NCBI GenBank assembly: GCA_050273025.1
Contig: CP158635.1
Span: 13,206,001 to 13,270,000 of the forward strand
From: Cenococcum geophilum
Taxonomy: Eukaryota
Length of the DNA stretch: 64,000 nucleotides
Direction of reading: 5' to 3'
Below, piece by piece: positions 1-28,752 of this stretch. Under the pieces are notes generated by a model. It saw nothing but the letters and a program-made list of their open reading frames with translations. It ran no database searches and was not told the DNA's origin. The stretch's first letter is position 1. Each line of letters starts with the position of its first letter. Made by a program: the position numbers and the translations under genes.

Positions 1-19
1 GTATAATTTAGTAGGCAAG

Positions 20-2940
20 ACTCTATAAGTATAATGCTATATAAAAGAATAAAGTAGAAATTTAATAAGAAATTGTAGGACGCCTATAGAACGCCTAGTG
101 GTCTGTCTACGTCCTAAAATTCCCGCTTTTATCTCTCTTAGCTTAATCTCTTCCAAGCTCTATATAATTTATAATAATCTCTTAAATCTCTTAATACGGG
201 CGGAAGATTTTATTTACTATATTACCGATAAAGGACAACTAATATATAACAATAACTCTAAACTCTATAAGTTTCTTTTTAAGCTTAAACACTTATATCC
301 TAAACAAGTACCAGTTATATTTAAGGTTAGTAGGCTTATAGATTTACATATTAAAGAGTTTAAAAATAATATCTAGTATATACTCTTTAGCGCTTATTCC
401 ATCCATTGTAATCTGCTAAGTGGGATTATATACCTCTACTAGTGTAGTAGGAAAGGGTTAGGAGGAAGTATAGTGGGACTTCTACTTATCGCTAAATTCG
501 TAGGGCTTCTTCTATAGGAATTTCTCTCGTTCTTTAAGATTAAAGTCGTTTTTATTTTTATATATCTACTATTAGTACTTTCTTAGCACCTGCTTTGTAT
601 CTGTACTTACTAGAATAGTTTTCTAATTACTACCCTTTTCTTTTAAAGAAGCTTCTTAAATTAGGGCTTAAAAATCGGTTTACCCTCTATTAAGGGTTCT
701 AATGCTATACGATTAGTTAAATAAGAAGACTATTAGGAGGTATAACTATTAATAGAAGTACTTTCTCTATTACTTTTATCCGGTTTTTAGCTAAAATATA
801 GCTATCTTTTAATTGCATCTAAGCTTTTTATAACATAATTATAATGCTATTACTCTATATTACGAAGCTTCCGGATTTCTATACGCAAAGAGCGTATAAC
901 TACGGTTTATTTAGTAAGTATATTAATTTTACTTTCCTATAGTACACTTTTATTTGATAAAGTCGTGTTAAAGCTATAAAAATAATTTACTAATTCCGAA
1001 ACTAAAGCTTTGCTTACTTATCCGTTATTTCTAGTAATTTACACCTATTTTGCTAATAACCCTACGCTAAACTATTTTAAAGCTAAGAAATTTGGCAGTA
1101 TTTTTAGCTCTTATTAGTATTAATATAAAGAAGCTTATATAAATACCGCACATTTTAGCAGCTAGAGAAAAGTTACTCTAAGATTAATATTTCTGCTTAA
1201 ATCTATATAATATAGGTAAAAGCAATACTACTTTCTAAGCGCTGTGCTATGGTTTCTAAGGTATATAGTATAAGTAAGAGTTAGGAGATAAAGCCGCGGC
1301 ATATTTAGCTGGCACTGCCGTAACTAAGAAGAAGTTTAGGAATATAGTTCCTACTCTATCTAGAACTGGATAAGGGGCTTTACGTACTAGTGTTTAGGGG
1401 TAGCCCTAATAAGTTAATTATTACTTAAAGCTAATAATCCGACTAAGCTAAGTTTTATATTTGGAATTAAATAGGGGACTTATTTAATATTATAAGAAGC
1501 TTATATATTCTATATAACCTTATCTTTATAACTCTCTTAAATATAGTATATACTCGTGTTTAGCAAATCGATCTAAAAGGCCTGTATAACTCCGCGTAGT
1601 CTTAAAAATCTTATTATTTCCCTTAAAATAGATATAAAAGCTCTTCTATAGGTCCGCAAGCATCTTTCCTATACTAGGAGAAACCTTAGATCTCTGCGAC
1701 AAGCGTATATCTATAACCTCTTCTTATATATTCTTTTCGAACTCTTCAATTTCTAGGTACTAATATCTCTTGACGATCTCTAATATATTAAACTAATCTA
1801 CCTATATCTGCTTTTACTCTAATATAACCTTATTAGCTAGGGCTATTAAGTTATACTAATCACTATATTATAGCATCTTATCGTTATCTAAAGTTGTTAG
1901 TTGCCTCCTAGTTCGAGAAGACCTTTAGTGTTAGGTAGACTGCATTTTATATATATAATAATCCACCTTATTATCAATAATAATTAGATTTACTATCTAT
2001 TAGTTTACTTCCATATCTCCTCTATTTTTAACTTTATATACTAGCTAAGGATCTTCCTAGGCCCCGATTTTTATTATTTAATACTTTTTAGGGGCTCTAG
2101 GGCTGTTCTTAGGGCTCGACATCTTCTATATAGAAGTGCTAGTTATCCTCCTTATTTACCTAACTATTTAGCTCTTCCCTTAGTTACTTATCCTGGTGCT
2201 CATCTAGCTGCTTATTTAATTGGCTGTTTAGGTATTAGTTTGGCTACTCCTCTAGCGACTTATCTAGCTGCTTATATAGGAACTCGTCTAACCGCTTACT
2301 TAGTTACTTATCTAGATACTTATCTAATTAGCTGTCCAGGTGTTAATCTAGCTGCTTATTTAGCCACTTGTTTAGCTACTTCCTTAATTACTTATTTCTA
2401 TACTAACCTAGCTGCTTATTTGGTAGCTTATCGATCTACTTATTAGCCTATTCCGCTAGTTGCTTATTTAACGCGAAGTCTTCTAAGGGAGAGAATACTA
2501 AGGTTTTATCTAACATATTAATACTATTAGGTAGGTTATCTAAGATGGATTTCTCTAATATGTTAGTTTAGATCTTATATTATTTTATTAAACAGAGCGA
2601 AGGCTAGATTAGGATCGGTCTAGTTACCTTTAAAATCTTCTAGATTTAAGCAGTCTGCGCTAAAAGTAAGCTTATATAGAAAATTCTAGAGCAGGATGTT
2701 ATCTATATCCATATTATTAATAAAAGCGTCTATATTTTTAGAGACTATATCTATAGTTTTAACTATAGCCACGTCTAAGCCGTAATTGCATTAAAAGTCA
2801 TTTATATAAGGAGAGAGAATATTAGCTTCCTAAGATCCGGATATTAGGTTAGGTTTGGTAAGAATAAAATCTTTAGGGTCTATTATTAAGGGATCCCAAA
2901 TCTGTTCTAGAAAGATATAGTCCGTAAAGGTAAACATATT
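20..2940 (-). pseudogene. Unidentified large protein with an acidic LDEQ-type 4-aa repeat; RIP-degraded
   Basis: Minus strand at 2140-2470 de-RIPs to LDSQLDEHLDEQLSERLDEFLHEQLDE..., followed by long frames with RIP-type stops. No family recognised; boundaries uncertain. Confidence 0.4.
2140..2470. repeat. Degenerate 12-bp tandem repeat (ctagctgcttat-like), coding LDEQ on the minus strand
   Basis: Repeated tctagctgcttat / ttagttacttat units. Confidence 0.8.
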
Positions 2941-5442
2941 AAATAAATTGTTTATATTAGAGGTGGAACTCTTTTAACGTAACGGTTAGAAGTTATAGTT
3001 AATAGTTATCGGATACAGTTAATATAGAAAAAGGTAAACTTAATAGCTTAAGTAGGGTTTCCTTGTTCTAGTTATAACCTTTACTATACTATATAATATT
3101 AGCCTCTATATTAAATACGGAATAATAGAAGTAGTGCCATAGGGGGGACGGTATTAGCTTAGCCGCGTTTATCTCTACGAGCTTCTAAGCTAACTATCTA
3201 GGAATATCTCTCTAGATCTTCTCTAGGCCGCTTATAGGTAGCTTCTTTATACAACCTCCCTATAGGGTTTGCCGTAGAACGCCTATTAAACGTATAAAAA
3301 TCCATTTAAACCGTAGCTGTACTGGAAAGCTTATTTAATCAGATATATAATAGATCTATTGCCGCCGTAGAGATATAAGACGATTGGGTAAGATTGAAAA
3401 ATGCTAATAAACTAGCCTAGATATCCTAAAGAAGAAATAATTTGGGTAATGCGCTCTGCTTTAAAACAGTACCGCCGCAATAATAAGGCGCAATTTTATG
3501 CTCTTTGCTGGCTAAAGCCGTTCGCCTATAATCTCTTGTCGTTATCGGCACTTATATAGGATTTAAGACACTGCGAGTGTATAAAGTGCGATATAAAGAG
3601 AAATATAAAGTCCATATAAAGCCTTAAAGGCTTATACTACCTTATACCTTTATATATAAATCAGGCTCGCGCTATCTATACTTAGGACTTTAGGAGTAAC
3701 TTCTTCGTTGCCTAATACCATCGGTATTTCTATCTTTGAAAAAATGGAGGATTTAAAGGATCTATAGCGTAATAGTAATGGCTTGCCACCTAGGGAATGT
3801 TTAGGGTGCCCTTTTAACTTAAGGGACATACTATATAAGGGATATTTAGTGATTATTAGACCGTGTTATAAACCCTTCATTTATGGTAAGCTGACGAAGA
3901 GAAACTAAGATGTTTATTATGGTTTCATAAGGATGTTTCCAAGCCCTATAATAAAGAAGTTAGTCTTAAGGGAGAGACAGGTATATAATACAGCTTTAAC
4001 TTAGGATTATAATTCCGGGTAGGATATAAACCTTAGAATCTTACAGCGCGAGAAATCCTTCGCATTGTCTTTCTAAGTAGTAGTAATGCTAAAAATCTTA
4101 TATCCTTATTATATACACCTAATAATAGCTTTTACGGGAACGCCGTGGAGAGCGGCTTATATATAGCTTACCATAACTAGCCCTAATAAATAATGGTGGA
4201 ATAGAACTACGAATGGCTTTATATTAGGGAGCTTTAGTATAGATCTCGTTCGGCGTTCCTAACGTATAAGTGCTTTGCTTATAGTTATAGTTTTCTCTAC
4301 CGTCGAATAGTTTATATAGCTGATTATATAACATTTAATATTCGCAGAACTATTCTAACCTTTTTTTTTTCTTTAATTTTCCTATACGTAATGCTTTAAT
4401 CTCTTATTTCTTAAACTGAATTAAACTCATGGCTCTTAAAACCTAGTTGTTCCCTTAGGTGGTGTTTAATATCTTAAATTAGAGCATAATTCTATAGTTG
4501 CCTTTCTTTTCCATTACTTGAACAAGGTTTTATGCGACGTGCAGTGCGTAACCTTCGCTCTTTTAATCCTGTCGCATCTAATCTAGAATCTCTAGTAGAG
4601 ATTACCTACCAAATATGTTAACTAGTGATTCCTATATGGTTTATTATATTATACCTATGTATTAAGTGCCTTTATCTCTAATTTTAAGCTTCAAATCTCT
4701 TTATATAATAGTGCCTCTTCTATTCTATACTGATTTAGAGTAGCGTAAGCCTTTTAATATAATGTAGACCATTCTAAAGCTTATTTGGTTTGTTTCTATA
4801 TAGCGTTATTAGCCTTAATACGGCGCTCGATTTCGGTCCAAAGTTTAGTTCATATTTAATTATAAGCCCAAATTTCGCCTTACAAGAGCTACAATAACTA
4901 GAAGTATTAATTTATAGTAAAGATTATCCAAATAGTTATACTGCTTGCTCTGTCGGGGTTTACTACGTCTTATAAGGTAATATTGCCGGGTAAAAGCTGT
5001 AGGTAAGGCTGTAAATAAGGGGCGGGAGTATCTATGGTATACTCGGAAGGTGTTAAGATAGTTAAGCTATTATTACGTATTTCCCATTAACGGCTAGATG
5101 GTATACTTTAAAGAAATAGGTGTTTAGGCATATAGTTATATTCTATAGTTTGTTAAGGATAGTAGATAAAAATTACTTTATAATGCGAACGTATAGCGGT
5201 TAAATATTCTATACAATTCCCGTAATTTTAAAATCAGTAAAAGTGAATTTTTATCCATAAACACATTTTTTGTATTTGTTATTAGAAGCGCTAAAGCTAT
5301 ATAAATAATTTTAGACTCCTGCGCTTAGTATAAATTTTATTAATATAAATAAAGAAACTGTTTCTAACTACTAGTGGCTATAGATTATAAGTCTTGCCGC
5401 CGGCACTAAAACTCTCCCTATAAACTTCCAGCCCCTAATAAT

Positions 5443-6640
5443 ATAGAGAGCAGCTTAATTTTAAAGCGCTTAAAAGTGGCCAAAGTGCCTAAAGAAGAAA
5501 GCCTAAAGCGTGTAAAGGTTTTTAAAGAAGCTTTCTAGCGTTACCCTCGGCTATAAGGTTGTAAAGTCCCTACTAAGGCAGCACTTCTGCAAAATTCTTT
5601 AAAGCGTGTTAAGCTTCTACTAACTAGCTAAAATCCTAATTATAGTGCCTTTAGCTCCCTACTTATGCCTTTTAGTATAAATCTGGACTTAAATATACAG
5701 CCTTATAATCCTTAAAGAGCTCTAACGCGTCTTAGAGATCTTATATAAGGAAATTAGCTATAGATAATTTATATTAATAAGGGCATAAACGGAATAATAA
5801 TAATAAAGAGGCTAGAAGCGGAGAAAGGCAAGGCAAAACTCGTAAAATTTTAACTACTTCGTTATAGAAATATTTCTTAAATTAGTTAAGTATTCTTAGA
5901 TAACGATTAGATATACCTTAGCTATAAATATTCTTGTTTTACTCTAGAGGAGATTCTTTATATTTACTTATATCTCCAGGAACGGTAGATATAAGTTATT
6001 ATAATATTAGTAAGTTAAATAATATTACTAGAGCTTATTAAAGCACTAAATTAGTATAGATCTTTAATATAATTAAGTATATTAGTACGGTAGGGTTACT
6101 TTATAGATCTGTTACTCTAAACGCAGTTAGAATTTGCAGCCGTAGTAGGCGTGTCCTTTTATATAGCCACCCTAATTAATTCTACCTTTATATTAAAATC
6201 TAACGTTTTATAGCTAATTTTAAAAAATATACCTAGCAATTAGCGTCCTTAACGTTAAACTTAGACCTAGAATAATTTAGATGTGTAGTGCTTAAATATA
6301 TAAACGGGCGGCCGTAAAAAGACCTTTACAAAGTTGACTTTATTAAATAATAAAGGGTAAAGAATAGGGTTTTGGTCTTAAATAGCCGGATAGGTAGAGC
6401 AGATATAAAGTTTTAAATGACTTTTTAGAGGAGCTTTTTAATACTAAAAAGCTAGCAATCGTAAAGTTAGACAAACCGGTATATTGTACTAGTCTTAATA
6501 TTTATAGACTGCTTACTATAAAAGCATCTATATATATTACAGTGTAACCTTAACTACTTTTACCTACTGTTATTCGTTAAACTTGTTTCACTAAAGTATT
6601 TTAAGCTTTAACGCGTATTAGAAGATAGCTTAGCTAAGTA
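5443..6640 (+). pseudogene. Protein kinase-like (pseudokinase) gene with introns, RIP-degraded
   Basis: Reads ..IIKRLEAEKGKAKLVKF*LLRYRNIS*IS*VFLDND*IYLSYKYSCFTLEEIL..L.LQER*I*VI, matching the kinase H.NI..L...F....YL..EY...L..I....L.E.QI pattern, then GLLY(H)R(G)SVTLNAVRI at the catalytic-loop position. Confidence 0.65.
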
Positions 6641-8115
6641 AAAGGGATAATTTAGATATACTTAGTTTATAAAATATAAAACATTATATTTTATAATATT
6701 TAAACTTAATAATATTTAAGATTACTTATATTTAATAGGGTTTTCACTAATACCCTAGTTTTAACTGAGCTAGCGTACCGCCTTTATTTTTATTATTTAG
6801 CTAAAATTAAAGTAACGTATATTTAAAAGGCAGTGTTATGCTAAGGCTTACCTAGGCATAATAGATATAACTTAGGTAAAGCTTTAATGTTCCTTTTAGT
6901 TAAATCTAGGGTATTAGTTAAAACCCGTTACCTACGTTATTTTTACTTAGCTTTAGATACTAAAATCTATTAAAATTATTTTAGTAAACGCTAAAGAGAA
7001 AAAAATAGAAAACAGCTCTATAGTATCCTGTTACCTCTAGTAGTTAGCGCAGCTATATCTATACAGCCTTTTTACAGGGGAAGTTTTAATATTTTTATAG
7101 TTTAAGGGAAAGTTAATAAAATACGCTAACCACCGGACACGTTAGGAGGCCGTAGTATAAATTTATATTTTACGCCTATAACTACGCGCGTTTATAAATA
7201 TAAATAATAATTTAGCCTAGGTAAGGGGCAAGCAATTTAATTGATTTTATAGTAAAGAGTTATATAATATCTTAAAGGAGTCCATAGAGTACTACCTAAT
7301 AATTAGTCTTAGATTACTTTTAGTCTTTAAATCTTTTAACGTCTTTAATCCTTTATTTACTATAAACACTCTTTCTCTATAATGGATTATTCTAATAGCT
7401 TTCTTTTAGAAATAGAATCTTAGAATTTCGATGATATAACCGTTACTATAACGCCAATAAAACTTAATCTAGAAGCTAAAGACTTTACTTCCTACTCCCT
7501 ATCTATAAGCGAAATTAAAAGATTTTATTCTAATATACCTCTAATTAACTAGCTTTAATAAGATACTATAAAACCAAACCTATTTTAAGGCGACTTGGCT
7601 AAATATAATAACCTTTATAAGTAAGTAAAAAACCTTACTAGGTATAATATTAAAATCTATATCTACTAATCCTAGAACCCTAATATAAAAGTAAATAAGT
7701 AAGTAAAACATAGGCTATAACTAAGTATTTAAGACGCGACCTTAATACCTTAGAGGATTAGATTCGCTAGATGGTAGAGTTTAAAAAGATAATAGCTAAA
7801 AGTTTTCCCCAAATTGCGGAGTTTAAAAAGACTATAAATAAAAGTCTTAACTATATAGGAGAGGTAGAAAAGATAATAGCTAAAATTACGAAAGTTTTTA
7901 GTAATAAATATACTAATAGAAACTAATTTGCTTATAGGGCAAGTTAATAGTATAGAGCTATTAAAGGAAGCTTTTTAGTTATTTAATTATATATCCTATA
8001 TCTACTCGCGTATAATATAATAATTAAAATTACTTTTAAGTTTTAATTAGTAGCTATATAGTTTTAGCCTACGCGGAAGAAATTCCTATAGTTTTTAATA
8101 CGGTAAGGCTATTTT

Positions 8116-9161
8116 ATTTATATAGGAAGGCATTTTCTAGTAAATGAAAGTTATATAGGACTCCGTTCCGTATAGGAACTAAAAAAAACTAAAATTAAAA
8201 GTTTAAGGGTACTTAATCCGTATGGGATTAGCAGATTTACTTAAATAAAATTACTTAGTATTTTTGTCCGTACGGGTATAAAAAAAAATTAAATTTAAAA
8301 GTCTAAGGGTAGTAAGTCCGTATAGGATTAGTTAGCTTACTTAAAATAAATTATTTAGTATTTTTATCCGTATAGGAATTATAATAAAACGGTATATGGA
8401 AATTATAAATAAAAAGGATTTCTACTAAAAATCCTATATAGGATATTTTCTTTTGCGCTTATATACTAAAAATAAAATAGAGAAACTAGAACTTTATTAT
8501 TTTTTTAGAAATACTATCTATACGGGATGGCGTAGAAAATAAGAAAAAAAAAGCTAGTAAATTTAAATGGTTTTAAATAAAGTTCCGTACAGGATAGAAA
8601 ATAATAAAAGTATTATTTTTATAGCCACTTTTCCCGTATAGGAGGATGTTAAAAAAGGTATTTAAAAGCTAAATATAAGAAGAGAATTTTAGTAGAAATC
8701 CTATATAAAATATTATCTTTTATAAATATATTTTTAAAATGGAACACAAATTCCAGTTTTTATAAGATTTTTTATTAAATTATTCCATATAGGAGAATAT
8801 TAAAAGAGGTATTTAAAAGCTAGATATAAAAAGAGAATTTTAGTAGAAATCCTATATAAAATATTATCTTTTATAAATATATTTTTAAAATAGAACACAA
8901 ATTCCAGTTTTTATAAGATTTTTTATTAAATTATTCCGTATAGGATATTATAGAAAATAGGATATAAAATCTAGGTAATTAAGTTTTAATATAGGATTAA
9001 AATTTAGTAGATTATTATATTTATTAGCTGTTTATACTATACGGGATAAAATTAAAAATAGTACTAAAGATCTAGTAGTTAAAGGAATTATATATAAAAG
9101 TTCCCTACGGGATAAATAATCTATTAGTTAAAAGGGTTATAAATATATATCCCGTACGGGC
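8116..9161. repeat. Phased array of the 12-bp palindrome TCCCGTACGGGA (RIP-eroded) with AT-rich spacers
   Basis: Copies start at 8116, (8149), 8166, 8216, 8266, 8316, 8366, 8432, 8516, 8583, 8632, 8699, 8783, 8850, 8934, 8985, 9035, 9101, 9150. Includes a ~100-bp duplication (8166-8366) and a 151-bp duplication (8632-8934). Confidence 0.9.
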
Positions 9162-9249
9162 AGTTAAGCTAGTAATATTCCATACTCCACGTATAATGGT
9201 AAGAAAATAAGTAAGATTATTAAATTTAGGGGAGACTAGAAATATATAT

Positions 9250-12200
9250 AGTTAGTATTACCTCTATTATACTACTTATAACTAAAGAATATAGTACTAG
9301 CGTTAGAATAATATATAAACGCTCTAGTAGAGTTAGAGATATAATAGTACTTAGACTGCTTAGAGTAACTAAAGGAATTATAGGCCTTTATAAAACGTTC
9401 CTAAATCCATACTAAGAGGATAAAAATTAAAGATAATAATTAATACTATATATAAGATAACTTATTTTCTAAGTATAAAACTTATAGCTTTTAGCGGGGA
9501 AAGATCTAAGAACTCCTCTTAAATCCGTTACACGCATAATAGCGTTATAAGTTTTTTACTTTTTTATTAAAGAAGCTTATATAAAGAAGAATTATAAGCC
9601 GTTCTTTAATAATAAGTTAATAGCGCGTTATTAATAAATACAGTTTATCTTAATTAGAGGAGTGTGCTTAAAGGTATTAACTTTAAGCGTCTGGCTTAGA
9701 ATATAATAAGATATAACTAAATTAGGCTATAAACAGCGAAGTTTGTTCCTTAGAAAGAAATAAGATTAAGGACTTATATAGTTTCTTTATAGTATAATAG
9801 GGCTTTAACTTTAGTATTTATTCTAATAAGGTACGGCTTAAAGCTATAGAGAATAGTTATATAAAGATAGCTAGATCTAAATTAATAAGATAGTAATTAG
9901 AAAGCAATAGTAAGTAGAATTAACTCTTAGATAATAAAAGCCCTATATTTAATAACTCTTATTAAACACCCCCTTTAAAACTTACTTCCTATACTTATAA
10001 ATATAAGCTTATAAAGCAATACCATATTTAATAATAATCTATCTTAGAACACTGCTTAAGGACCTATAAGGATTATTAGTAAGTTTTCTAAAGTTAATAA
10101 AGGTAATATATATAATTTAATATTATTAGAAGACTATACTTCTATATAACCTATAGGCATAGAGCTTTATAGCTATTTCTACTAAGTATTTTAGAGGTAT
10201 ATAATATATAGCACTTATAATAGAAAGTATAGCTGCCTATATTAAGGCGTTATATACTAAGCGCTAGGCTTAAATTAAAACCGAATAAGCCTATTTACGT
10301 ATTAGCTACTATAATCTAGCGTTTAGTATAAATTAATAGTTTTAATAACTCTATAAGCTTAGAGAGCCCCTAAGGGCTATATAGTTAATCTACTAAGGGT
10401 TAAAGTATTCGCTAAGAAGCTGCAAAACTCAAGTATCTTATTAAGATGTGTTATATCTATATAGAGTGCCATAAACTCTATAAATAGAGCCTAAGTAATT
10501 AGATAGTACCCCTTATAGGTTAAATACTACCTTTAAATAGGCTTTAGAACCTAGACGTATAAACGCCTTAAGATTAGTAGTATAATTATAGACTAATAGA
10601 TGTCCCGCGTCTTTAATAATAGCATAGTTTCCTATAAATTAGAAAATAAAGACTAGGAGATTTCTAGATAAGCTACTAAGACCTAAGCGAATAAGAAACC
10701 TGTTAAGATAAGCCTTATACTTAAGGAAGGACACCTTTAGCGGCAAAAAATCATACCTTAGTAGTCTATGTAACGCAACTTTTGGAGAAATGTGCTTAAA
10801 GGTATAGCTAGAGCTCTACGCTGTATAAAAGAGGCGTTGCCTTACTATTTATTCCTCCTCTATATCCTTTATCCCTCTTCCGTTTTTTAAACTCTTTTAG
10901 CTCTAGTATATATTAATCTTATAACCTTGCTAATAATATCTTTTATAGTTAAATAATAGCTATAGACTTCTAATCCTAAATAGAAGCAAATATCCTTTAT
11001 ACCTAATTAACTATTTAATATAGTTTCTTTATACAGCGGCGGCAGTAATACTATTGCGGATAAGACTATATATACTACTAAGGTATACTATAGTAAGGAC
11101 AATGCCTAAGTTCTAGTAATTAGTTTATAATATTATTAATATAATTATAGGGGTAAACTTAAAGAATAAATCTCGTTTTAGGAATATTAGAGAAATTACC
11201 TATACTAGGGTTATAAATAAAAGCTTAGAGTTTCTCGTGTTATAGAAGCCCGGGTAGGTATCCGTAGTAAAGTATTATAAAGGCCTGGAGTACCCAGTAT
11301 ATATCGCCATTAATAATAATAATAGCACAGCGTTAGTATATTGGGATCCTATTTAGGAGCTACTTACAAATCTACTACATAATAAGATTTAATTATACTA
11401 TACTTAGGAACCGACTTAACTTAATTAATATACTAAAATATATAAAGAGCTTAAATAGATAATAAGAGGTAGAGTAAGGTAAGGATACTAGTTAAAAGAG
11501 CAGTCTAAAGAGTTACTAAAGGAAAGGGGATATAAATAAAAGGCAGATAAGCTGTTAGAGAAAGCCGTACATAAGTAGAAGGTAGATACTAATACCTATA
11601 ACAGAGGTAAGGAGATAAAGGCTTAATAGTAACATAATAGAAGACGAAGCTAAATCTAATCTAATTAAACTATTACGGAATATTGCATAAATTGTTAAGA
11701 TAGAGAAACTATACAATTAAGTTAAGTAGCTTAACAATCTAAAATAATATTAGGCTCTTCTCCCTATCTTTCTAGCAAGTTTTATTAAGATTACTAACCT
11801 CTAATATATAATTATTCTAATACCTAAGAGCCTCTAATTAGCTAAGTAGTAATTCTAAAGGCTTAGTTAGTATAACGGTAGGAAGAATAACTAGTTTTTA
11901 AACTATCTTTATATTAATACTCTTATAAATAGAAAGTTTAATACTTATAAGTTTTATAGTATAAAATAAGCAATTATTAATCTAAGGTATATAAGGATAA
12001 ATCTAGCCTATAAAATCCGAAATCTAAGCATTTATCCTCTTTAATAATTCCGTACTAAAATCCAAGATAGCTTAAAGTTTTACTTTAGTGCTGTTATTAT
12101 TATAAACTAGATTAAACCCTTCCACCCCTAAGCTTAAGTTTTTAAAGATTAGGTTAAATTCCTAGGGATTCCTAGCACGTTCCGCTAAAGTATTAAGGGC

Positions 12201-12750
12201 ATCCTTTATAAGTAGCTCCCCTTTTAAGTATCCGGCTTATTTAATATATACTAGGCAATTTAAAATAGGGTAATCTTAGTAGAAGTAAAAAATAATAGAC
12301 TTTACCTATATATAGACTAGCGGAAAAGATTATATTATAATATTACCGATAAAGAATTTTAATCTAAATAAGTAATAAAATTAAAGTTTATATAGGCAAA
12401 ATATTCTATCTACAAAGCTTTATTTATATAGCTAGACTAAAAATAATATAGGTTTCTTGGAAAACGCCACTAATAGTTACTCTATAGAAAAGATTACGCG
12501 CGCTTTATAACCGCTATATTATTTTATAAATAGTTTTTAAAAGAGAAACTCGAAACTTTTATAATCCGCCTAAAAGTAGAGTTATAGCTATCCTTACCGT
12601 ATAGATATGTGGGAGAAGCATTTATAATGCGGTATTAGTAGTAGATTTAAACTATATTCCTAGCTATAATAATAAAACAGGAATATTTAATATAAGACGT
12701 TAACTAGGAAATTTATAAAGTATAAATTCGGATATAAGATCTTAAAATCT
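9250..12750 (+). pseudogene. Unidentified coding-like region (one or two genes), RIP-degraded
   Basis: Long frames interrupted by TAA/TAG, with plus-strand intron-like signals (gctaat..tag ~10930-10948; tactaat..cag ~11587-11604). No family recognised and strand not certain. Confidence 0.3.
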
Positions 12751-12889
12751 ATTAGCTTAGCTAAAACTAAATAGCTTATTATACTACCTAATTCTACTTT
12801 TATAACTAGAGATATTTCTCCTACTCTATTGCCTTTATCTTCGCACTATTATAAATTCTAAAGGCTAAAAGCGCACTTTAATTCATTAA

Positions 12890-13400
12890 TTCTTTTCTAT
12901 TTATAGTAGTTCTCCTATTTAAGATCTTAAAGGTGAAGTTTAAGCTTAGCCTCGTTGTTAAAGATCTGCTCCTTTACTTACCTAAGCTAATTCTTAAACT
13001 ACTTTAACTTCTTAAACCTTATCTACCTTACGTTTTTAAGCTCTTTACGGCACTTAAACAGTGCGGCTTCTGCCTCTAAATATTAATCTTAAAGTATACT
13101 AATTATTACTCTTGCTTTATCTAGTTTAGTTTTAAGTTTTTAAATTTAAAGTATAGAGTTCTGCTTATAAAGAGAGAATTCCTTAAGAAACCCCTAATTG
13201 GTGTAACTATTAGACTTTTAATAGAGAGAGTAATAGCTTACGCTCTTTTCCTTATTAGTAAAACTATTAGTAAAAGAAGAATTTAGACCTACTAAAGTGC
13301 TTAAATTAGTACTAGAAGAGTCTATTTTAGGTATTAAGCTATTATTTCTTAAGATAAAGTAAAATTCTAAGATTAGTATATAACCTCTTGCATTATAAGA
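12890..13400 (-). pseudogene. Coiled-coil protein fragment
   Basis: Minus frame QNSIL*I*KLKTKLDKARVIISIL*D*YLEAEAALFKCRKELKNVR*..EQIFNNEAKLKLHL shows a heptad pattern. Confidence 0.4.
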
Positions 13401-13879
13401 TAAAGAAAAGAGCGTACCCTAAAAGACCTTAAAAATCTAATATATTCTAAAATCTAAAATCTGTTTCCTAGGACCGCTATAAAAGATATTAGCTAAAGAT
13501 AGGGCTTATATATATAGGTGCTAAGACTTAGTATCGCCAAGAAATTACTTATATATATTTTAGTTAGACCTTAAGAAAATTAAATAACTAGCTAAAGGTT
13601 ATATAAGGCTTATAAATAATCTACTATTAAAGGCCAATTAAGGGCTTTTATAATAGCTATGCCCCATACCTACTAAATATTAATTAATTATAAATCTTAG
13701 CGATTGCGTAAATCCGAAGCTTGCGTAAGCCGCCCCTAGTAATTCCAGTTTTAGACCTTAGCTTAACGTAGAATAACTACCCGCAGCTCTATTGTTGTAT
13801 AATTTAGTCAGAATTTACCTAAGCTTATTGTAGTTTATAAGAATAATTTTATAATAAAAATGGCTTATTATTTAAGAGG

Positions 13880-15568
13880 TATACCTAATTATTAAAACCT
13901 AACTCGCCGGTGTCTTATTAGGCTAAAAGTTTATACTAAGGAGCGTAATGTTATATGTATTTAAGCAAAGGGCTTTTCTTATATAGGTTTTAAACTTAGG
14001 CGTCCTATAAACTGTCGGCCGTTAAATTAAAAAGTATTATTACCTTTTAAAGGAAACTTACCTAATATTATTATATTTCCCGCCTTGGCAGACTATTCTT
14101 AGTTAATAATCTATACTGTGTCTAGTGGATATAAAAGCTTATAAAGCCTCTTTCTAAGAATCTTATCCCCTTTACTTAGTTCTTCTATAGACTTAGCAAC
14201 TTTATATAGGAAAAAAATAAAAATAGTAAAAATCTAGCGGTAGTCTATATTATATAGAGCTAGGATAAACTCTTTTGCCTATTTATATTGGTCTTTATAG
14301 TTAGCAATACCCTTATTTTTCTAGTATACTATAAATTCTTACCTTTTGTTTCTAAGAACTATACTAATAATAGCCTTTATATACGGGCAGTCCGATTATT
14401 ATATGCCGTTAGGAGATATCGAATTAACAATAAATAGCTTATAATTCCAATACTATTTGCTATAAACAGCACCTTATTATATTAGCTTAGGTAGTAGTAC
14501 TAAGCACCTCTATACAGTCCATCTAATATAACTAGAGTTACTTTACTGTATAACCTTAGTCTGCTATTAAACCCTTACTTAGTTCAAATAAGGAGTACTA
14601 TAGTTTTATTAATGCTAGTCTTATTTTCTAAGACCTATGCTATTATATAAGGATGTGCTTAAATAAGGCCAAAACCGTGCGGAATGGTGATGTAGATAAA
14701 TTGCCCTGGCAGTATTTTCTAGGGGCGTTTTACTATAATTCTAAGTTAAACGGCGTTTTCTAAATCCTTACCTCCTTAGGGATAGTAAACTATAGATACT
14801 TAAAAACCTAATCCTAGATTTTAATATAATATAAATCTAGCCTAAAGTACTTTCTAAAGAACCTAAAGTGATAATGCGACTAAGAGATAAGCTATAGAAT
14901 AGCTCCGCTTTAGTCTAATATATAACTATAATATTCCCATTAAAGCTAATGCGAGAAGAAGGTAAGTATAGAGGAAAATTTTATAAGCGTAATAATAAAT
15001 AATAAAAAAAGAGAGAAGGCTAATAGCGGAAATAAATGTAATAAGCTATTTATAATTAAGCTTAGTAGGAATAAGGGAGTTTTAGATAAACTATAATTTT
15101 AATATTTACTACACGCGAATGCTTTAAAGATACTATTAGAAGTGCATAAAGTACTCCTTTTAGGATATATACCTAACCAATCTAGTAGTAAATTAAGCTA
15201 TAATTATATGTCGGTAGGTATAGGACTTTATTGCTAATTAAATTAGTTCTGCCCCTAAGGAATAGTGGAACTACGTTAATAGCGAATAGATATTCTAAAT
15301 GCTATGTAAATTAGATACCTATAGATAAGCCTAAAACGGAGCTAATAACATTTATAACTGCGTAAAGAAAGATATAAAATGCAGCTAAAAGACTAATATT
15401 TAATGTGCTTTTTTACCTAGGAACAATTAAAGTATATAGAGTCTATTTCTGGATATTTAATAGGAGTTTTTCACGAGCCTAAGAGCTAATAAGTTTGGAA
15501 ATTCTCTAAATAGAGAAGATGGCAATAACTGCGCTATACGAAACGATGTAAATAGTAGTTATATTTAT
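13880..15568 (-). pseudogene. Ferric reductase-like transmembrane oxidoreductase (Starship FRE-type), RIP-degraded
   Basis: Minus strand: hydrophobic N-terminus; INVVPLFLR(G)GRTNL..Y.LIY(H).WIG.V..LKGVLY(H) heme helices; VKRP*KILPGQFIYITIP..QAHPY FAD motif; ILDGL(P)YR(G)G..KVLFIANS(G)IGI NAD-binding motif; R.L.LV*(W). Confidence 0.9.
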
Positions 15569-16637
15569 TTTCTTTCCTTAAGAATTTTATAGGATGGTTA
15601 AGCATTATAAAGACGTGCTTAGTTCTTTATTAAAAGAAATAAGTTTACTAGAAAAATAATAAATTTTAATAAATTTTATAATGAGATATTATTTCGGCGC
15701 TCTAACGTAAGAGTGGGTATTAAAAGAAAATTAAGGAAGCTATAATTAGAAACCAAAATCTAAGTAAGAAGCTATTTTGGGGTCTAATTAATACGCTATA
15801 AAATAGTTGAACTTTAATTAGCAAACTAGCCGCTTGCTAAATACAGAACTAGTAGCTTACTTTACACCGCTTATTTTTTAGCTAAGGGCATATTTAATAA
15901 CTATTACTTAGCTAGGTAGGCTCTACTAAGTAGGCGCTTTAAAAAAGCCACCTAGGCCTACCTAGGTCCACTAGTCACGAACAGGCTACTAATATTAATA
16001 TCCGCCTAGTGAATATTGTCTATTTAACGCCGTAGGTGGATTTAAGTAGATTAGTCGTCTTAGTAGTTAAAAAGGAGGTTTTATCTAGCTAAGTAGAGGC
16101 ATTTATACTAACCGCAATTACGCTTATAGCGGCGAGTTTTATTAGCAATTTTAAGCTACCTAGGTAGTCTATTTAGGCGAATTCCGCTAGTACCTACCGT
16201 TTTAAGGGGGGTACTAGTGGAACACTAATATGACCAGGTCGATTGATCCTGCCCTTTATAATATTTTTGACCTATTTTCACCATCCTAGGATCTAATTCG
16301 ACGCTAACTATTTAGTAATGCTCCTTTTTTGCTAAACAAACCCCTTCTACTAGGTGGAAAGTACCCCTGCCTTAGCGTTTAGAAGAGGCGCTTATATCCT
16401 AAAGATTACGCCTAGGTAGAGTTAACCTAGCTAAAAAAGTTATTAAATATGCCCTAAGGCGCATAACTTGCATATAATGTGCATGCTGTGCCGTTTATAT
16501 TATCTCTAGTAGAATTAAATATAAATATTATTAGGAACACTTTTAATTACTATAAACCGTTATTTTATTAGTCTTACTTTATTCGGAGACTATTATATAT
16601 ATCTACCTTTAAATCTCATTAAAAGGATATTAATGCT

Positions 16638-17400
16638 ATACCTCGCCTAAGAAAATGACCCTACGCGTCTTTATATGGACCTTTAGAAGCTAGCGACCGA
16701 ATATTCACAACCTAACGAGAAGGTATTTTTAAGAAAGCTTCTATCCTTACTTAACTGGTGCCTGGAATAAGAGTTGCTATCTTTATAAAGAGGAACCAGG
16801 AAATCTTCACGTTTCAATTTAATAAAAACTTAACTTCTTAGCCTCCCTCTATAGAAGAGATTATAAGCACTATCCTTATTTACTGTCTTTATACACTTAT
16901 ATAGAGTAGTAAAGGGAAAGCAACCTAATTAATAAATTTCCCTATTATTATTAAAGTGCCGCTAAAGCACGCTTATAGGGGGATAAAACTCCCCTATCTA
17001 GCCGAAGCTCCCTAAAACGTCTTTTATTTCCAAGTAAGGTCTACTATAATCTAAATATTAGGGTTAAGAGCGAGCCTATTTACTCGTCCCCTATTAGAAG
17101 TATTAATTAATTAAAATAGTTTTTATCTATTTACTATAATGGGATAGAGTTTATAAACCGCTATAGTGAAGCGTTGCCCCCTATTAGTAATTGGGCATTA
17201 CCTAACTATAATAATATAGGTAACTATAACTCTCCCGCCCCTTTAAGTGAGATTTTTTATACACCGTATAAGGATCCCTATTAACGACCTTACTATTATA
17301 GTTAAAGCCTAAGCCGGAACTTAACCAACTGTACAATTCTCCCTCCTCTTATAGTACTTATATTTGGCGCTTTGCCTTTAAAGAGATTATTAGAATGATT
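16638..17400 (+). pseudogene. Divergent MADS-box/SRF-like transcription factor (copy 1)
   Basis: DRIFTT*REGIFKKASILT*LVPGIRVAIFIKRNQEIFTFQF....S*(W)PPSIEEI matches the MADS pattern F.KR+.GLFKKA.EL..L....VA+I+...G++Y.Y.S; intron after ~16863. Confidence 0.7.
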
Positions 17401-17499
17401 TAGGGAATTTGGGTTATATTATATATAATGCTTAGTAAATTATATATAAAGATAGGGAGCCTTTATATCGTTAGAATCTAGTACTTAGCCTTTTAAATA

Positions 17500-20400
17500 T
17501 TTTTACTATAGCGTAAGCAATTAAATATTTAATTTATTATTAGGATTATATAAATAATAAACCTCTTCCCCTAATTAAACCTTAAATGGCGCGTATAGCG
17601 CTAGCTAAAGTGATATTTTAGGGAGGCGCTCTATTTCTATAGAAGGCACTAGCTAAAGTAATATTTTAGGAAGACGCTCTATTTCTATTAAAATAGTTAT
17701 AGGCATATACTAAAGTAAGGGCATCTCCTACTATATAAACCTCCTATTAAAACAGAGTTGCCTCTTTAAGAGTAATACGTCCTTAGATCTATTATATAAT
17801 CGTTTTCTCCCTAACCTAGACCTTCTAAGAAGCCTAGTATTGCTGTCTATAGTAAATATACTCCTATATTAGTTTGCAAAAGTATTAATATCTTCTTTAG
17901 TGCCCATATAGCAATGCTTATATCTTTTACATACCTCTAAAAGATATTTAGGGTTATAAAACGTTATAACGGTAAGGTTAGGAGCTAGAAACTTTATTAT
18001 TCTCTAGAATATCTTTTTATATTGCGCTACTTACTTAGTTAGAAAGGATCTAAAGCCCTTAAGCGCCTAAGTTGGCTTATACGCGAACTCTACTCTTTAA
18101 AAGCCACTATTCTTATCTAATTAAATTATAATAATCCGAAGGTTACTAAATATATCTACTTTAATAATAAAGCCCAAATCTAGCTCCTTTTTATACTCCT
18201 TAAGCTCTTTTAATTTTTAAAAACCTTGGTTAATAAAGTTATCTTTAAGTTGCATATTATATTTAAGGCCCACAATCTTTATCTTCGCCGCAGAAAATGT
18301 ATGTTTTGCTTAGCCTTAATATACCGCCATACTTTAATCGGCCTAGTTCTATAATTTACGTTATCGGCGTTTATGCTTAGTCTTTACTATCTATTTTAAC
18401 TGCTCTTATTAATACTTGTGCTCTTCTTCTAACGATTTAAGGACCTAAAGATACTTAGATTGGGCTTATGTTATTAGCTAATCCACCGCCTCTTAAACTA
18501 CTTTTTCCTTTTAAGACTTGGCTAACTCTAATGCTTAATGCAGTCTTTCCTCTTCTTACTATTAGCGTACTTACTCTAATAACTTAAGAGCTTTTAGATG
18601 CTCAGATTGGGCCTATAATTTTAGCTAATCTACCGCCTCTTAAACTGCTTTTTCCTTTTTAGACTTAGCCAACTCTAATGCTTAACGCAGTCTTTTATTC
18701 TCTTGCTATTAACGTACTTGCTCTAATAACTTAAGAGCTTTTAGATGCTTAGATTGGGCCTATAATACTACCTCTTAAACTACTTTTTTCTTTTTAGGCC
18801 TAGCTAATTACAGTGCATAATATAAGTTATTATTTTCTTCCATAACTTATTTTATCTCTATCTATATTACCTTTAAACGTTAAGTTAAAGTAGCAGTTTT
18901 ATTCTTTAAAGCATTAGATACTTCTATTAACTTTATACTTTTTTCTTTTATTTTAATTCTTGCCTTCTCTATATATTGTTAGAGCGCTTTATAATCTCTT
19001 TCTTTTATTTATAACTTATTCCGCATTTCTTCTTAAATATCCTTTAATTTTTTTAGGCCGTTATTTAGCTCTAAGACTATAGCTATTTAGGCCTCTAGAT
19101 TATATTATAATTACTTAATTTAGGTATCCTTCCTATTGCCTTCTATAGAGTCCTGTTAATATTTATTTTCTACTATTACGCTTTAAAGATATTTCTTCTT
19201 AGCTACGGCCGTATTAAGTGTTAACTGCTATTACATAAACTGGGATTTTAGCCTCTTTTTAGAAATCTTAAATGATATACTTTGAGCTGTTATCTCTTCT
19301 AGCTTATTACTAACTAGAGAGTACTCTTTCTTAAGATCCCTAATTTGAGATTTTGCCTTCGCTAATTAATTCTCTGTTATTATAGAAGTGGAAGCTATTA
19401 ACTTCCTAGTAGTTTTTAAACTTGTTTTACTATCTTCTAACTCTTTAATTTGTAAATTTAATTAGTTTATTTTAATTTGCAGTTCTTTAACTAAGTGGTA
19501 ATAGGTATAGTTATACGCATTAGTAGGACTCTATATTAGTATAGTATTTTAGATTAATAGTAACCAAGTTTCTAAAGTAAAATATGCATCCTTTTTTTAA
19601 TTAGTTAAGTTTATATATAAAAAAGGGGGTTGGGTATACCTTAAATGACTTAAATCCGAAAAAGGTTATAAAGAAGTCACGTTTTATAAAAAAGGGTATA
19701 ATATTGGCATTAGGACGAACCTTACTCCCATAAATATATGGGATGAAAAGGCAATTATTATCCTTTTTATAATTATCGTTAAAGGGCCTTCCATACCTTT
19801 TATTAGTGGGGAGGGGTTTAGAACTAGTAAAGTGTGGTAATTAAATACAGTTATCCTGATTTTTTAACTACTTAAAAACTAAGGTAATAGCCGTAACTTT
19901 TTACTTATTTATGGACTTTAATTAAGGATTAGCTTTTTGTAATAGTTAGATAATAAGTTCTCTTTTAAGATCTTATAACTTAAGCGTAAGAGCTATAGGA
20001 ATCTAAAAGCCTTAAGTAATAGATAGATAGTTAAGGTTTTAATATAGAGCTAGACTTAGCTCCCTAATAATAGGCTTTTCTTTTTTAATTTCTTTTTAGG
20101 GAGTATATTAAGTTATATATAGGAAATTACAAAGATAAAACGCCTATAACAGTGTATAGCGAAGCCATCGGTCTTCTATAAATCTACGCTTTAAGCAGCA
20201 CTACTAGCTCGTCTTTAAGAATAGTATAATTAAGTTTTTAGGACAATAATAGTAAGCTTTAAGGCTCTAATAAATTATTTATTTTATTTTATTGCTAATT
20301 AAATGCTTTAGTATAATATAATAAGGTTCTAGGTATTTAAGGTTCTTAAAAAAGGTTCTTAATAAAGGAATTAAATAATCTACTAAAGAAATGTTCTGTA

Positions 20401-21438
20401 AAATAAGGTCTCTTATTAACTGGTCTAAAATAGCTAGGAAAATCTTCCTAGACTCTATTAGCGTAGTAATACGATCTATATTAGCTTTTAAGATAGCTAG
20501 TATAAGTAGTTTTAGATTCCGAACAGTGTCTATATTTACTACTAATAGGGGTAAATCTATATTACTATAGCTAATAATCTTCTTCTAAATTTTAGAGATA
20601 TGGTTAAGTCTATAAAGCAGTTCCTAGTTTATTTAGCTAGCACTCTCTATAAGTAAGTGGAGAATAATATACCTTATTACACTTAAGCGTTAAGAATCTA
20701 TGTAGCGCTCCGATCTGAATTGGTTTCTATAGGCCTTGCATTTCTACTAGGGCATTAAATACTATCGCAAAGTGGGAATTCTTAAGAAGTTGTTTTAGAT
20801 TATTTGGTTTGGACCTATCTAATAGGGCCCACTATCTATTTTCTGATTTCGTGTCATTCTTGAGATAATAGTATTATATTTTACGAAATACTTCCCCATT
20901 TAACGGTTTCTATTTATTTAAGTATTCTTTAATTATCCTTATAAGGACTATTTATGGGAGATCTATAATAGATTCTTAGCTAGAATAGTAAGATACTTAA
21001 GTAAACGCGCTTATCTTTAGAGAAGAGCCTTACTATCTATTACTGGTTATTATTGTCTAAAAATTCTTTAGCAGCTTTAATATAATATAAGCCTCTAAGG
21101 CAGTCTACACTCCTTAGGCTAATAAACGGTATCGAGTTACCCTCCTAAAGTTAACGAAAATGTTGTTTATTAAGACCTAAAAAGGCTAGTAATAAGATAA
21201 GGGCCGCATTATCTATAATAGCATTAATGAAATTTTCTTTTTCTAGCCTTTTATAACCTACTCTTTTAAATATATTTCTAAGGCGGCGGACATTCTTTTT
21301 GGATGGTAACCAATGTTTTTTACGTATAAGAGGATAGTCGAAATTAAGTGCCCTAAGTTTTATTTTTGCTATACCTAGGTAGTTCCGCGCCTTAAGTATA
21401 GACAGCTTAAAGTTATCTATAGTTATAGGAAGAGCCAT
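17500..21438 (-). pseudogene. DUF3723-domain protein with long coiled-coil C-terminus (Starship auxiliary gene)
   Basis: ORF 21151-21438 (YLGIAKIKLRALNF..KNVRRLRNIFKRVGY(C)KRLEKENFINAIID) continues after de-RIPing as VDCL.GLHRIEAAKEFL...WTVRLF; EEYSNEQKPSDGEVFRKIR.Y; RWWALL..SKP.DLKQLLK...AFDAL..MQGLW..IQIGALHR.LTLKCDE. 3' end approximate. Confidence 0.9.
18457..18810. repeat. 147-bp (49-codon) tandem repeat, ~2.3 copies, in the coiled-coil tail of the DUF3723 gene
   Basis: agattgggc recurs at 18457, 18604, 18751 with near-identical intervening sequence. Confidence 0.9.
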
Positions 21439-21695
21439 TACTTGTGCTAAGACCTTAATACTAATATAGGAGACTTAAAGCTTTTTTATAAGAAATATTA
21501 GTTAGAACCAAATATTAAAATAAAAATTTTAATTTAGTATTCTAATTGCACTATCTTATAGACTATAAAGCTGTATTAGGCGGTATAAAGTAGAATTAAA
21601 TTTTTAGGAAACTATAAATATTTAAATATATATATATAAACAAATATTTAGAGGATTCCCTAAGCTCCACTCCTCTGTTTTATCCGCTTTTATTA

Positions 21696-24600
21696 ATGGC
21701 GAAAATTCCTTAAATAACTATTAATTTTAAAAGCAAAGGTGCTATTACTAAGCACTGATAAGCTTTTAAGTCCTTAATACTAGAAGAGAGCCAGTATTAG
21801 AGCCTATTATTTATTACGCTAGTTAGTAAAAAAACAAAGTCTGCGGTTCTGTAATACCTACTAGGAAATACTATAGATAGAAAATTTCTAGCTAATACGT
21901 ATAATTAAATCTACCTTTAGGAAGACCCTAAAACCTATAAAGATACCTCACTAATCCTTTTTATTAATTGCGAACTTTAAAACTATTCTTTATTATAGTT
22001 GCTTCTTTCCTATAGCAGTAGGGAGATAGTAATAAGAAAAATCTCTTAGTAGCAGCCTTTAAAACGTCGCAAAATGCTTGGCTTGTTATTATGTGATTAA
22101 GTACTCTTACCTTTCTCTAATATAGTCTGCTATTTTGTTACGGATCTAGGCGGACTAAGGGAGGTATCTAAGCTTATAGCTTAGTAAGCTGTTAAATCTC
22201 TAAGTTCCGATCTCCCCGTGCTCCCCTATATTCTACTAGTATTTAATATATCCTTACTAACCTTTAATAAAAATATTGCTGAATTAAAGTCTCTAGCTTT
22301 AATAACCGAAATAATGCAGAACTTTAAGTAATATAGTAAAGCTAAAGACGTAAATATAGATCTAAAGGCTTATTTTTATAGTATCTATATCCTTAGACTA
22401 AATTCGTCTATAAGCCTAGCGAAACGTTTATACGCGTTCCGAAAGCGAATTCTTTTTATATTAAAAGAAGCACGCGTCTTACGCCAATCCACTTAAGTTA
22501 AATTCCGTTTTAAGCATTTTAAGGCTTTATTAAGCTTGGCTTTAGAGCACTTCTACTTTACTATTACCGCCCTATTTTTATTTGTCTAAGTAGTATAACC
22601 TTATAGCTTCTTAAACGAGGGGTTCTCGGCGTGCCTTAGAGATCTTATTAAGTATATACCGTCTTAGGCATAGCTATAGCACTTTATTACCCTATTAGTA
22701 GTATTAGCGTTAATCCTATTAAGCTATCCCCTGGGTTCTTATTATATAACTCCCGCCCTAAATCTAGCTAACTAACTGATGCTAATTATAGACTTTCTTC
22801 CTACTTTTATCTTCTTAAAGCATTTCTCAAACGCTTATATCTCTGTAATGTAGGACTATGCTATAGATATAAGTATTTACACGAAATTTTTATTAGCGGT
22901 TCTAGATAATTTCCAGTCTATGTTTTAAATACTCTAATTAAACTCTTTATTAACTATATCCTAGATTTACACATAAAATATCGCAAGGCTTTGGCCCTAA
23001 GTAGTAGAGTTTAGAAACTATAAGTCTTGCTTCTGTTATCTAATGCGAATGCCTAAAAAGGTATTAGACTGCGGTTATGTACTCTATAATATATATATTA
23101 AAATATATAGAAGACGATTATCCTTAACGAAATACAGCTATTATCTTTTGTTTTGTGTCCTTTATGCCTTACCTTATAGAGCGTCTGATTTTTAATTTAT
23201 GCCACCTAGTACTAGTATCTGTATTTTGAGTATAGACGGCGGAGGTATAAGGGGAGTTATATTCCTTATCTTTTTAATATATATTAAGCAGGCACTATCT
23301 AACTTTAGATATTTACTGCGAGAATATTTTAACCTTATCTATAGCACTTCTGCGGGTACATAAAAATGAAATATTATTAATAAGAACTTAAGTTAATCTA
23401 GTATTTAGGTAGGATGACCGCTATAGGGATAGGTCTCTTAGGGTGGAGCGCAGCCGAGTCGTTATAGAGATTTGAGGATGTAGTAAGTAAGACCTTTAAG
23501 CGGCGAAAATTTAGATCTACTTTACTTACTAGGTTATAAAAGATAATGTTAAGCTACGCCTAAGATGGCTAGTATAGCCTTACCGCCATCAAATTAGGCT
23601 TTGAGGCCGCTTTTGGATCCTATCTAAAGATGTTTAATCTACTAATAAATAATACTAGAGTTATAGTAACAATGATAACTGCTAAGGAGTTATAGCCTTA
23701 TTTGTTTTGCAATTATAATAAGGGTAAGCGACCTAAGGAGATTGGTAAGTAAAGTACTTTTTTAATTTAATGCAGTAGCGTCCTAATTATATAGGGTATA
23801 GTTTAATCTAGGCTAATTATTTACAGCATAATATATCTATTAGTAAAGCGTACGTTTAGTTTAGGGGATATTTAGAATTAAGCTAATGCATTTTAGGGCA
23901 TGTTGTACTTCTACTGCACCCTAGTTAGCTAATCTATTATATATCCTATAATTTAATACTAAATTAGAAAGGTTCTTTAAACCTAAAGTAGTAAAAAACC
24001 TTAGTACTTTTTAGGATGGGGGCCTTTAAAATAATAATCTAATTGTTATTACCTAATTGGAAAGTCTATTCCTATAGCCTAAAAAGGGCGAGCCTAACTT
24101 TACTCTCTTATTAGGGACCGGTATAACCTCTATGCTAATAGCTGCTAGCACTTAATCTTTAGTTATAGATTAATTTTACCTAAAACTCTTTAAAAGTTTT
24201 ATGCGGAGTCTAGACAGCGAGGAAGCTTAAAAGAGGTTTATTTATACTATCCTAGTATAGTACTATAGTAGATATTATTGTCTTAATCTTTATCTTTAAG
24301 GACCTAAACCTCTACTTAATAACCTATCTATAGTAGGAGAATTAAAAAGCTAAACTACGGAATATATAAAATTAAGTTCTATAATTCCTACTATTATAGA
24401 CTTAATATACGCTGCAATGTTCTACTTTAAGCTTAAATATCTCTTTTAGTATATTAACGGCCGTTATAAGTGCGTTAGTTATATATTTTACCAACTTAAT
24501 CTCCCTCCTAGTAGGCGTTAATACTTATACTCTTAGCTTATTACTACATTATCTTAGTTCCTTATTTATAGTTATCCAATAGCTTATATATTAAAAGTAC

Positions 24601-27240: not shown

Positions 27241-27565
27241 TTTTAAATTTAATCTTTAAAATAGTTAAAGTAATATTATTCTTTACTCTACTTATAACTA
27301 ACTTATAGATAGGGGCTAAAATTAATTTCTATTAAACGGATAATTAGGAATAAGAACTCTATTTTATTAAAGAGGGCTCTAGAAGCTCTCTATATATATA
27401 AGGTAAATCTAGGTAACTAAGACAAATATTATAGGTAACTGAGATAAAATAGGTAATAGAAACAGATAGTGAGATATAGGGCACTAGGCATTAAAGACAG
27501 TAAGATAGTAGTAAGGAAATCCGATTTAGATTAACAATTCCTCTTAAAACGAGTTCTATTTACCC

Positions 27566-28732: not shown

Positions 28733-28752
28733 AGCACGGAAGAATACTTATA

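Follow-up and report, generated by a model that had tools for sequence, protein, structure and literature searches.

The array and its host element

The stretch analysed here (64,000 nucleotides of Cenococcum geophilum; the window) lies wholly inside a large Starship that begins ~11.7 kb before the window and ends ~6.7 kb after it (Table 1). At the right end of the element, outside the window, a DUF3435 tyrosine recombinase (the captain; Pfam E 2e-20 and 3e-11) is the first gene, starting ~0.5 kb inside the element end and pointing inward. A Myb-like gene of opposite sense to the captain lies at the left end, also outside the window (Pfam E 0.002, under the cut-off). Comparison of copies revealed sharp ends with unrelated flanks, and 13 left and 11 right junctions, drawn from this family (family 1) and its sister families, differed outside the ends. 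The heptamer AGGTATA is present on both sides of the window's copy, and other copies have imperfect direct repeats only. Auxiliary genes were represented by DUF3723 and by patatin-like and Myb-like sequences, the latter two below the Pfam cut-off. The location of the array in a Starship was thus confirmed by the captain, the DUF3723 gene and sharp ends at independent sites. A layout with a captain and a MYB/SANT gene is described in the available text of PMC12256816, where the role of the MYB/SANT gene is hypothesised only. Our element shares with Starships of this type (PMC12256816 and PMC11162782, as far as the available text goes) the DUF3435 gene, an opposite-sense Myb-like gene, DUF3723, direct repeats and presence at many sites, and is a new member of this known element type.

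Table 1. Features of the window and of the element that contains it
Feature	Position	Strand	Basis or remark
Host Starship, ~82 kb	G000:C1 ~13,194,280-13,276,660 (spans window 1..64000)	-	Copy comparison, Pfam
Small broken gene with coiled-coil-like end	7382..7950	+	Multi-copy comparison; exon structure inferred
Phased array	8116..9161	+	18 units (A/T)(T/C)CCGTA(C/T)GGGA plus half-sites, 16.68-bp lattice, A/T-tract spacers
100-bp tandem duplication	8181..8372	+	Two 50-bp units, 83% matches
Core common to sister family d	8467..9058	+	440 bp in d, with one 151-bp unit
151-bp tandem duplication	8637..8945	+	67+84, 95% matches; in family 1, single copy in family d
Small broken two-exon ORF, ~83 aa, orphan	9196..9494	+	ATG 35 bp past last motif
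DUF3723 gene, broken (Starship auxiliary)	19700..20900	-	Pfam E 3e-34
Patatin-like fragment	23226..23360	+	E 0.029, below Pfam cut-off
Module common to families d and e, ~79%	55667..59902		Copy comparison

The window is decayed by RIP, with a GC content of 22-41% and two stop-free frames of at least 120 aa. Copies of family 1 differ by ~8% transitions and 0.1% transversions, so that the family appears, from these comparisons, to be young and to have been inactivated by RIP; all genomic copies of the array-bearing Starship are now RIP-inactivated. The array was found at full length at at least nine loci in the genome, at one of them in two pieces. About 20 kb separate the array from the Myb end and about 61 kb from the opposite end of the element, so it is not a terminal repeat. 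The small broken gene to its left stops ~165 bp before the array. When a profile of exon 2 of the orphan ORF to its right was searched against 1.84 billion proteins, a single protein was matched.

An oriented motif on a 16.68-bp lattice

It had been proposed that a 12-bp palindrome recurs here at spacings that are multiples of ~16.7 bp. Each of the 18 positions given by those spacings, as well as the extra copy at 8149, has either the motif or a recognisable remnant of it. All 18 units lie on the same strand, and together they span 62 lattice units. For the 18 anchors taken from the earlier spacings, the best-fitting period was 16.68 bp (R = 0.955), which bears out the phasing. Between 8101 and 9170, a RIP-tolerant scan found 13 motif matches. 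Five hundred dinucleotide shuffles averaged 0.18 matches and never exceeded 2, and no other 1,070 bp of the window contained more than 2. A 3-mismatch search of the whole window gave 11 matches against 6.65 expected, with 11 or more in 12 of 100 shuffles, and was not significant alone; nine of the 11 fall inside the array.

Several of the spacings are not independent, since tandem duplications repeat them: 50+50 in the 100-bp duplication, 67+84 in the 151-bp duplication, and 84 in an older duplicate at an offset of 267 bp. When the duplications were collapsed, the remaining 12 intervals beat all 20,000 uniform simulations (period fitted), and with the weakest anchors also dropped, the 10 intervals left were likewise above 20,000 of 20,000. 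The four spacing classes taken alone gave p=0.002 for phasing. Ten of the 17 intervals in the array measure 49-51 bp.

The palindrome itself required revision. The motif is real, and it is imperfect and oriented, (A/T)(T/C)CCGTA(C/T)GGGA. A fully symmetric 12-mer as the pre-RIP state of every unit is an idealisation, because 12 of the 18 units have T as their second base even when any C among the eight copies compared is credited, and this T does not stand in a CpA context. Across the same eight copies, 15-16 of 18 units keep the GGGA arm at each position; the left arm's third C is kept by 5 of 18. Units 8699 and 8850 consist of the left half only, in all eight copies, and units 8116, 8149 and 8985 of the right half only. 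Two degenerate GG(A) half-sites stand in register to the left of the array, at ~8066 and ~8099 (window 8066-8115), for which reason the lattice may start ~50 bp further left of 8116.

The motif is not enriched genome-wide, with 306 matches against 347 for a reversed control. A genome-wide search for motif pairs returned 72 matches against one in the control. The 66-bp pairs among them belong to another repeat without homology to the array, and the remaining pairs lie in families 1, d and e, save for one ungrouped match.

Composition, spacers and conservation

The A/T-tract spacers of the array have a GC content of 25% even when C/G alleles are credited. Among 314 windows of the element, the array had the lowest GC (0.27 against a median of 0.39) and the highest density of A4/T4 tracts (0.22 against 0.05), and a peak of A/T and A-tracts was also seen at the core in all three family-d copies tested. 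As RIP yields TpA and not A-tracts, the A/T richness of the array is not a RIP product; it is older than RIP and intrinsic. Bending by A-tracts spaced at 10.5 bp was ruled out (R=0.11 over 44 tracts).

The spacers are unrelated to one another; the exceptions are the pairs that arose by duplication (z 6.7-7.5) and a single additional pair (z ~4). Only one of nine spacers resembles the unit of a GC-rich minisatellite described below (z 1.4-3.2). Units of the A/T array therefore do not align head-to-tail, and TRF reported only the 100- and 151-bp doublets together with three weak 14-25-bp doublets. The claim that this is not a plain satellite was correct in this respect. Motifs appear better kept than spacers, transversions having hit 31 of the 663 positions in spacers against 1 of the 142 in motifs (Fisher p=0.03); this test is biased, because the motifs were chosen for conservation, and its oldest alignment is only ~60% identical. 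In the older, 267-bp duplicate, the 84-bp interval is intact despite 20 spacer transversions and six mutually cancelling gap columns. Empty units of the lattice show a G peak at the offset of the motif's G-run, and the GG trace in these units is weak (9 of 34 against 5.8 expected, p=0.08). Transversion divergence of the core between families (0.4-2.8%) is about equal to that of other shared blocks (2-3.5%), so that a special constraint on the core is not shown. An Rfam search found no structured RNA in the array; one chance match outside the array scored 24.6 bits against a gathering score of 90.

Sister families carry 17-bp minisatellites

The core of the array recurs at ~12 further loci (16 partial matches), with flanks that differ from those of family 1 and are conserved among themselves. 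These loci constitute family d; it has two gene blocks and the terminus at the Myb end in common with family 1. In family d the core passes directly, and without a change of register, into a 17-bp minisatellite rich in GC; the two periods are 16.70 and 16.83, and the phases lie ~1.4 bp apart. The first units of the minisatellite contain exact copies of CCGTACGGGA at a distance of 50 bp. A third family, e (34 kb, two copies), shares both termini and the captain at 82-86%, and carries the GC minisatellite without the A/T core, while family 1 has the A/T array and no 17-bp GC array. Neither form of the array is therefore needed in all members. Sixty-two G-run units from the GC arrays yield GTTCCCGTAGGGGATTAG as their majority unit, one base off the motif core. 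Like other GC-rich minisatellites (VNTRs), the arrays of d and e are ordinary tandem arrays with aligning 17-bp units and 34/51-bp higher-order units, whereas the A/T array keeps the core at every third to fifth unit and consists otherwise of unalignable A/T sequence. Given the constant 16.68-bp period and a recognisable unit whose consensus lies one base from the motif, the grid and motif of the array were inherited from a 17-bp minisatellite, an origin that the original prediction had missed. The quantised spacing can accordingly be explained without a protein.

The core is flanked by different genes in families 1 and d. The arrays of families d and e sit between the 3' ends of a convergent pair of genes, a fungal kinase (Pfam E 2e-78) and an AAA-ATPase-like gene read by eye, for which Pfam gave no confirmation on the RIP-decayed copies. 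The arrays are thus not tied to one promoter. A higher identity of the core between families (89-95% vs 79%) had raised the possibility of a recent core swap, which was not supported, as transversion divergence is similar; the higher identity is attributable to fewer RIP targets in the core.

Families d and e contain a second 17-bp minisatellite of different sequence and opposite orientation, with up to 25 units, 7-9 kb further on (for example the L109/L108 region, e1 18.7-19.3 kb, and the L083 region, d4 18.3-18.9 kb). The units of the two arrays are only loosely alike, and homology among copies ends shortly after the second array. The module at 55667..59902 lies between the two arrays in d and e, and no such arrays stand beside it in family 1, where a 34-bp (2 x 17) repeat is present at the beginning of the module (55,531-55,647). 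Small broken ORFs that look MADS/SRF-like by eye occur at ~56,500-56,690 on the plus strand and on the minus strand of L043; the former lies in the module common to all three families and gave no such Pfam match in this RIP-decayed copy. Two copies of family d differ in their DUF3435 genes, which lie at distances of 12 and 24 kb. The 34-kb element of family e contains a 1.2-kb inverted duplication (e1 12,097-13,282 vs 29,550-30,729; L108, L109/L110).

Distribution and resemblance to hipBA operators

The stretch was present in 20 of 24 listed sequencing runs from 10 studies, all of them under one species label or from root or soil metagenomes, and the best-matching of the 20 may be the source sample itself. 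Four runs of the same species label matched next to none of the stretch's sequence words, and these are contigs, which are unable to show absence. Depth rose over the core in all four runs that were aligned to the stretch, with loose ends at 8467 that match the family-d flank (contigs only), and in two of the four there were loose ends at 9061-9063 (contigs only). No copy of the array was found outside this species label and root/soil metagenomes among the runs listed. Metagenomes were scanned with a pattern built from the fungal motif for pairs spaced by 46-72 bp; at least 119 loci came up, with no fungal homologue among those listed. The fungal array was not recognised in viral contigs either (18, 40 and 3 loci). 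Palindrome pairs ~50 bp apart, mostly in A/T-rich DNA, were seen at viral loci L261, L263, L271, L274, L275 and L277, and 18 of 40 viral loci fell at 48-52 bp in a pair search of 40-70 bp. Series at 66-70 bp in the metagenome and viral scans look like CRISPR-type repeats.

Fifty-six of the at least 119 metagenome loci listed have the same core at a spacing of 49-51 bp. Once seven of these had been dropped by eye, an HTH-like pattern was nearby in 44 of 49, a crude pattern applied without a control; Pfam identified HTH and HipA in L160 and L127, and HTH in L128. The metagenome loci L121-L239 (L127 and L160, for example) include a hipBA subgroup in which two to four operators TT(A/C)CCGTACGGGAA, spaced by 49-51 bp, lie upstream of hipB, and this sequence would offer a ready operator consensus for a widespread environmental subgroup. 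In Shewanella oneidensis, the hipBA operators are 16 bp long, GTGTA-N6-TACAC, and occur in four copies 34 bp apart and thus with a 50-bp period (PMC4150777, available text). A palindrome at a 50-bp period with free A/T spacers is, on this account, a proven binding design in bacteria. The fungal array resembles such operator arrays in its palindrome at ~50-bp period and its unrelated A/T-rich spacers, and shares the CCGTACGGGA core with the environmental subgroup. It differs in having 18 units rather than two to four, a 16.7-bp grid with 66/67 and 84 spacings, and a eukaryotic host.

The resemblance could reflect descent, a bacterial hipBA operator region having been horizontally captured and amplified, and the shared core at 49-51 bp and the HTH and HipA matches described above speak for such a history. 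We consider it very improbable. The motif match was partly built in, because the search pattern derived from the fungal motif; the bacterial flanks read TT(A/C)...GAA against (A/T)T...GAT in the fungus; hipBA-like loci mostly have two to four sites without the 66/84 spacings; and none of the at least 119 loci listed matched the element by tblastx. Nor was there a tblastn match to hipA or hipB at E<=1 in the fetched Starship copies, so that the neighbouring genes of hipBA arrays were not recovered there. As the fungal minisatellite already accounts for both motif and period, the resemblance is probably one of convergence; on this reading the fungal array is operator-like in how it would work without being a hipBA operator array.

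Origin and possible function of the array

The persistence of a phased motif among unrelated spacers may indicate that either the array serves as a cis-acting scaffold on which a protein docks, or it is simply what remains of an older repeat. We predict the former, at even chances: a protein-docking scaffold of this Starship clade, carved from the 17-bp minisatellite. The grid would have arisen by slippage and unequal exchange, in steps of whole 16-17-bp units. A/T tracts would then, in one lineage, have replaced most units, leaving each third to fifth unit with its CCGTAYGGGA core and in its grid position. The product would be a series of sites, on stiff and probably nucleosome-poor DNA, for a DNA-binding protein that acts as a dimer. 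Support for a scaffold comes from the survival of the lattice after de-duplication (R=0.955 over 62 units, 0 of 20,000 nulls), from unalignable spacers that descent does not easily explain, and from motifs that have changed less than spacers, together with the 84-bp interval that survived cancelling indels. That the array tops all 314 windows in A/T and A-tract content, which is not the work of RIP, that arrays are not tied to one promoter, and that hipBA operators provide a natural precedent (PMC4150777, available text) point the same way. Against it stand the bias of the motif/spacer test and the ~60% identity of its oldest alignment, the absence of either array form from some families, the ordinary divergence of the core, the lack of genome-wide motif enrichment, the imperfect and strand-biased palindrome, and the want of a fungal homologue among the at least 119 metagenome loci listed.

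The main rival is neutral, and we regard it as a substantial possibility. An old 17-bp minisatellite would have decayed and drifted to A/T, grid and motif persisting by descent alone, with whole-unit duplications (100 = 6 units, 151 = 9, 267 = 16) re-spreading the surviving cores. The three visible duplications, the G-run consensus that holds the motif with one change, the contiguous and in-register A/T core and GC array of family d, and the patchy presence among families all agree with this, as does the G peak in empty units, where a faint GG trace fits decay. That trace is statistically weak, however, and only one of nine spacers resembles the GC unit. Moreover, a decay that erased spacers would be expected to erode a core with a CpG as well, and to disturb the phase by indels in A/T tracts; neither happened. 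A further explanation, that the Starship contains a separate, nested TIR transposon (CACTA/hAT/MULE-like) of which the arrays are the sub-terminal repeats, with the opposite 17-bp arrays of d and e marking its ends, appears improbable. It would account for two oppositely oriented arrays 7-9 kb apart and for the sharp homology borders at 8467, at 9058 and shortly past the second array, but the flanks at 8467 and 9058 are conserved within each family and not variable, no TIR or TSD was seen, and the two array units are only loosely alike. Pfam found no transposase in window 56,400-59,900, and the adjoining part holds the fungal kinase. Sub-terminal repeats lie near element ends, inside TIRs with a TSD, whereas this array lies deep within the Starship. 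The conservation of flanks within families also ruled out the core as a MITE or CACTA-like insert.

If the array is a docking scaffold, transcriptional or chromatin control of the surrounding cargo is its likelier job, although taken by itself this more specific prediction is tentative; replication, retention or transfer of the excised circle is a doubtful second. The Myb/SANT protein of the element is a candidate binder. Two others are the MADS-like small ORF, a resemblance that Pfam did not bear out, and a host Zn2Cys6 factor, presumably suited to the CCG-N2-CGG geometry. Starships relocate by way of a circular intermediate (10.64898/2026.09.21.753150) and cross species (10.1101/2025.02.28.640899), according to the available text of these sources, in which no internal DNA site is named. 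According to a bolder and unlikely proposal, Starships would have in the lattice arrays their first internal cis-acting sites. Each would be a modular site that serves the excised circle as an origin or in its retention or transfer, formed by 17-mers with G-runs and/or by an A/T-rich region that unwinds and contains phased binding sites, swapped between sisters and read by the Myb/SANT or the MADS-like protein; if true, the parallel would be with the oriT/oriV or par sites of bacterial ICEs. Iterated short motifs at regular spacing in A/T-rich DNA of a mobile element are known from the AMA1/MATE replicator of Aspergillus, plasmid iterons and parC-type arrays. The fungal array differs from these in that no match was found among 72,556 plasmids and no Rep or Par gene was identified.

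The cis-elements named in the available text of PMC12256816 and PMC11162782 are the termini and the target site, and an internal phased repeat array such as that of the host element is not described there. As originally stated, no Starship cis-element of this kind came to light in the text available from the literature searched, which included these two sources, 10.1101/2025.02.28.640899 and 10.64898/2026.09.21.753150; supplementary catalogues could hold such arrays unannotated. Should the docking scaffold be correct, a minisatellite has been turned into a binding array with its grid kept; should the array be neutral, it is only a marker of this Starship clade. The 440-bp core and the 17-bp unit provide a concrete probe for tests of binding, reporter activity and autonomous maintenance.

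Other features of the element and genome

A 2.3-kb insert at 44264-46616 of the window is not in three other copies; it has 184-bp direct repeats at its borders and a 12-bp tandem array inside, and looks like a small LTR-type element. Old internal duplicates pair 32,560-33,306 with 36,640-37,440 (~70%) and 58,530-58,894 with a segment just past 64,000 (81%). The genome (G000) bears a very large Starship load with at least four captain types and at least 165 DUF3435 matches, mostly RIP-decayed (100 of 342 candidates scored). At G000:C7 ~4,710,950 (L048), a sister Starship lies head-to-head with a family-1 copy, and their two Myb-end termini meet in a 140-bp palindromic junction.
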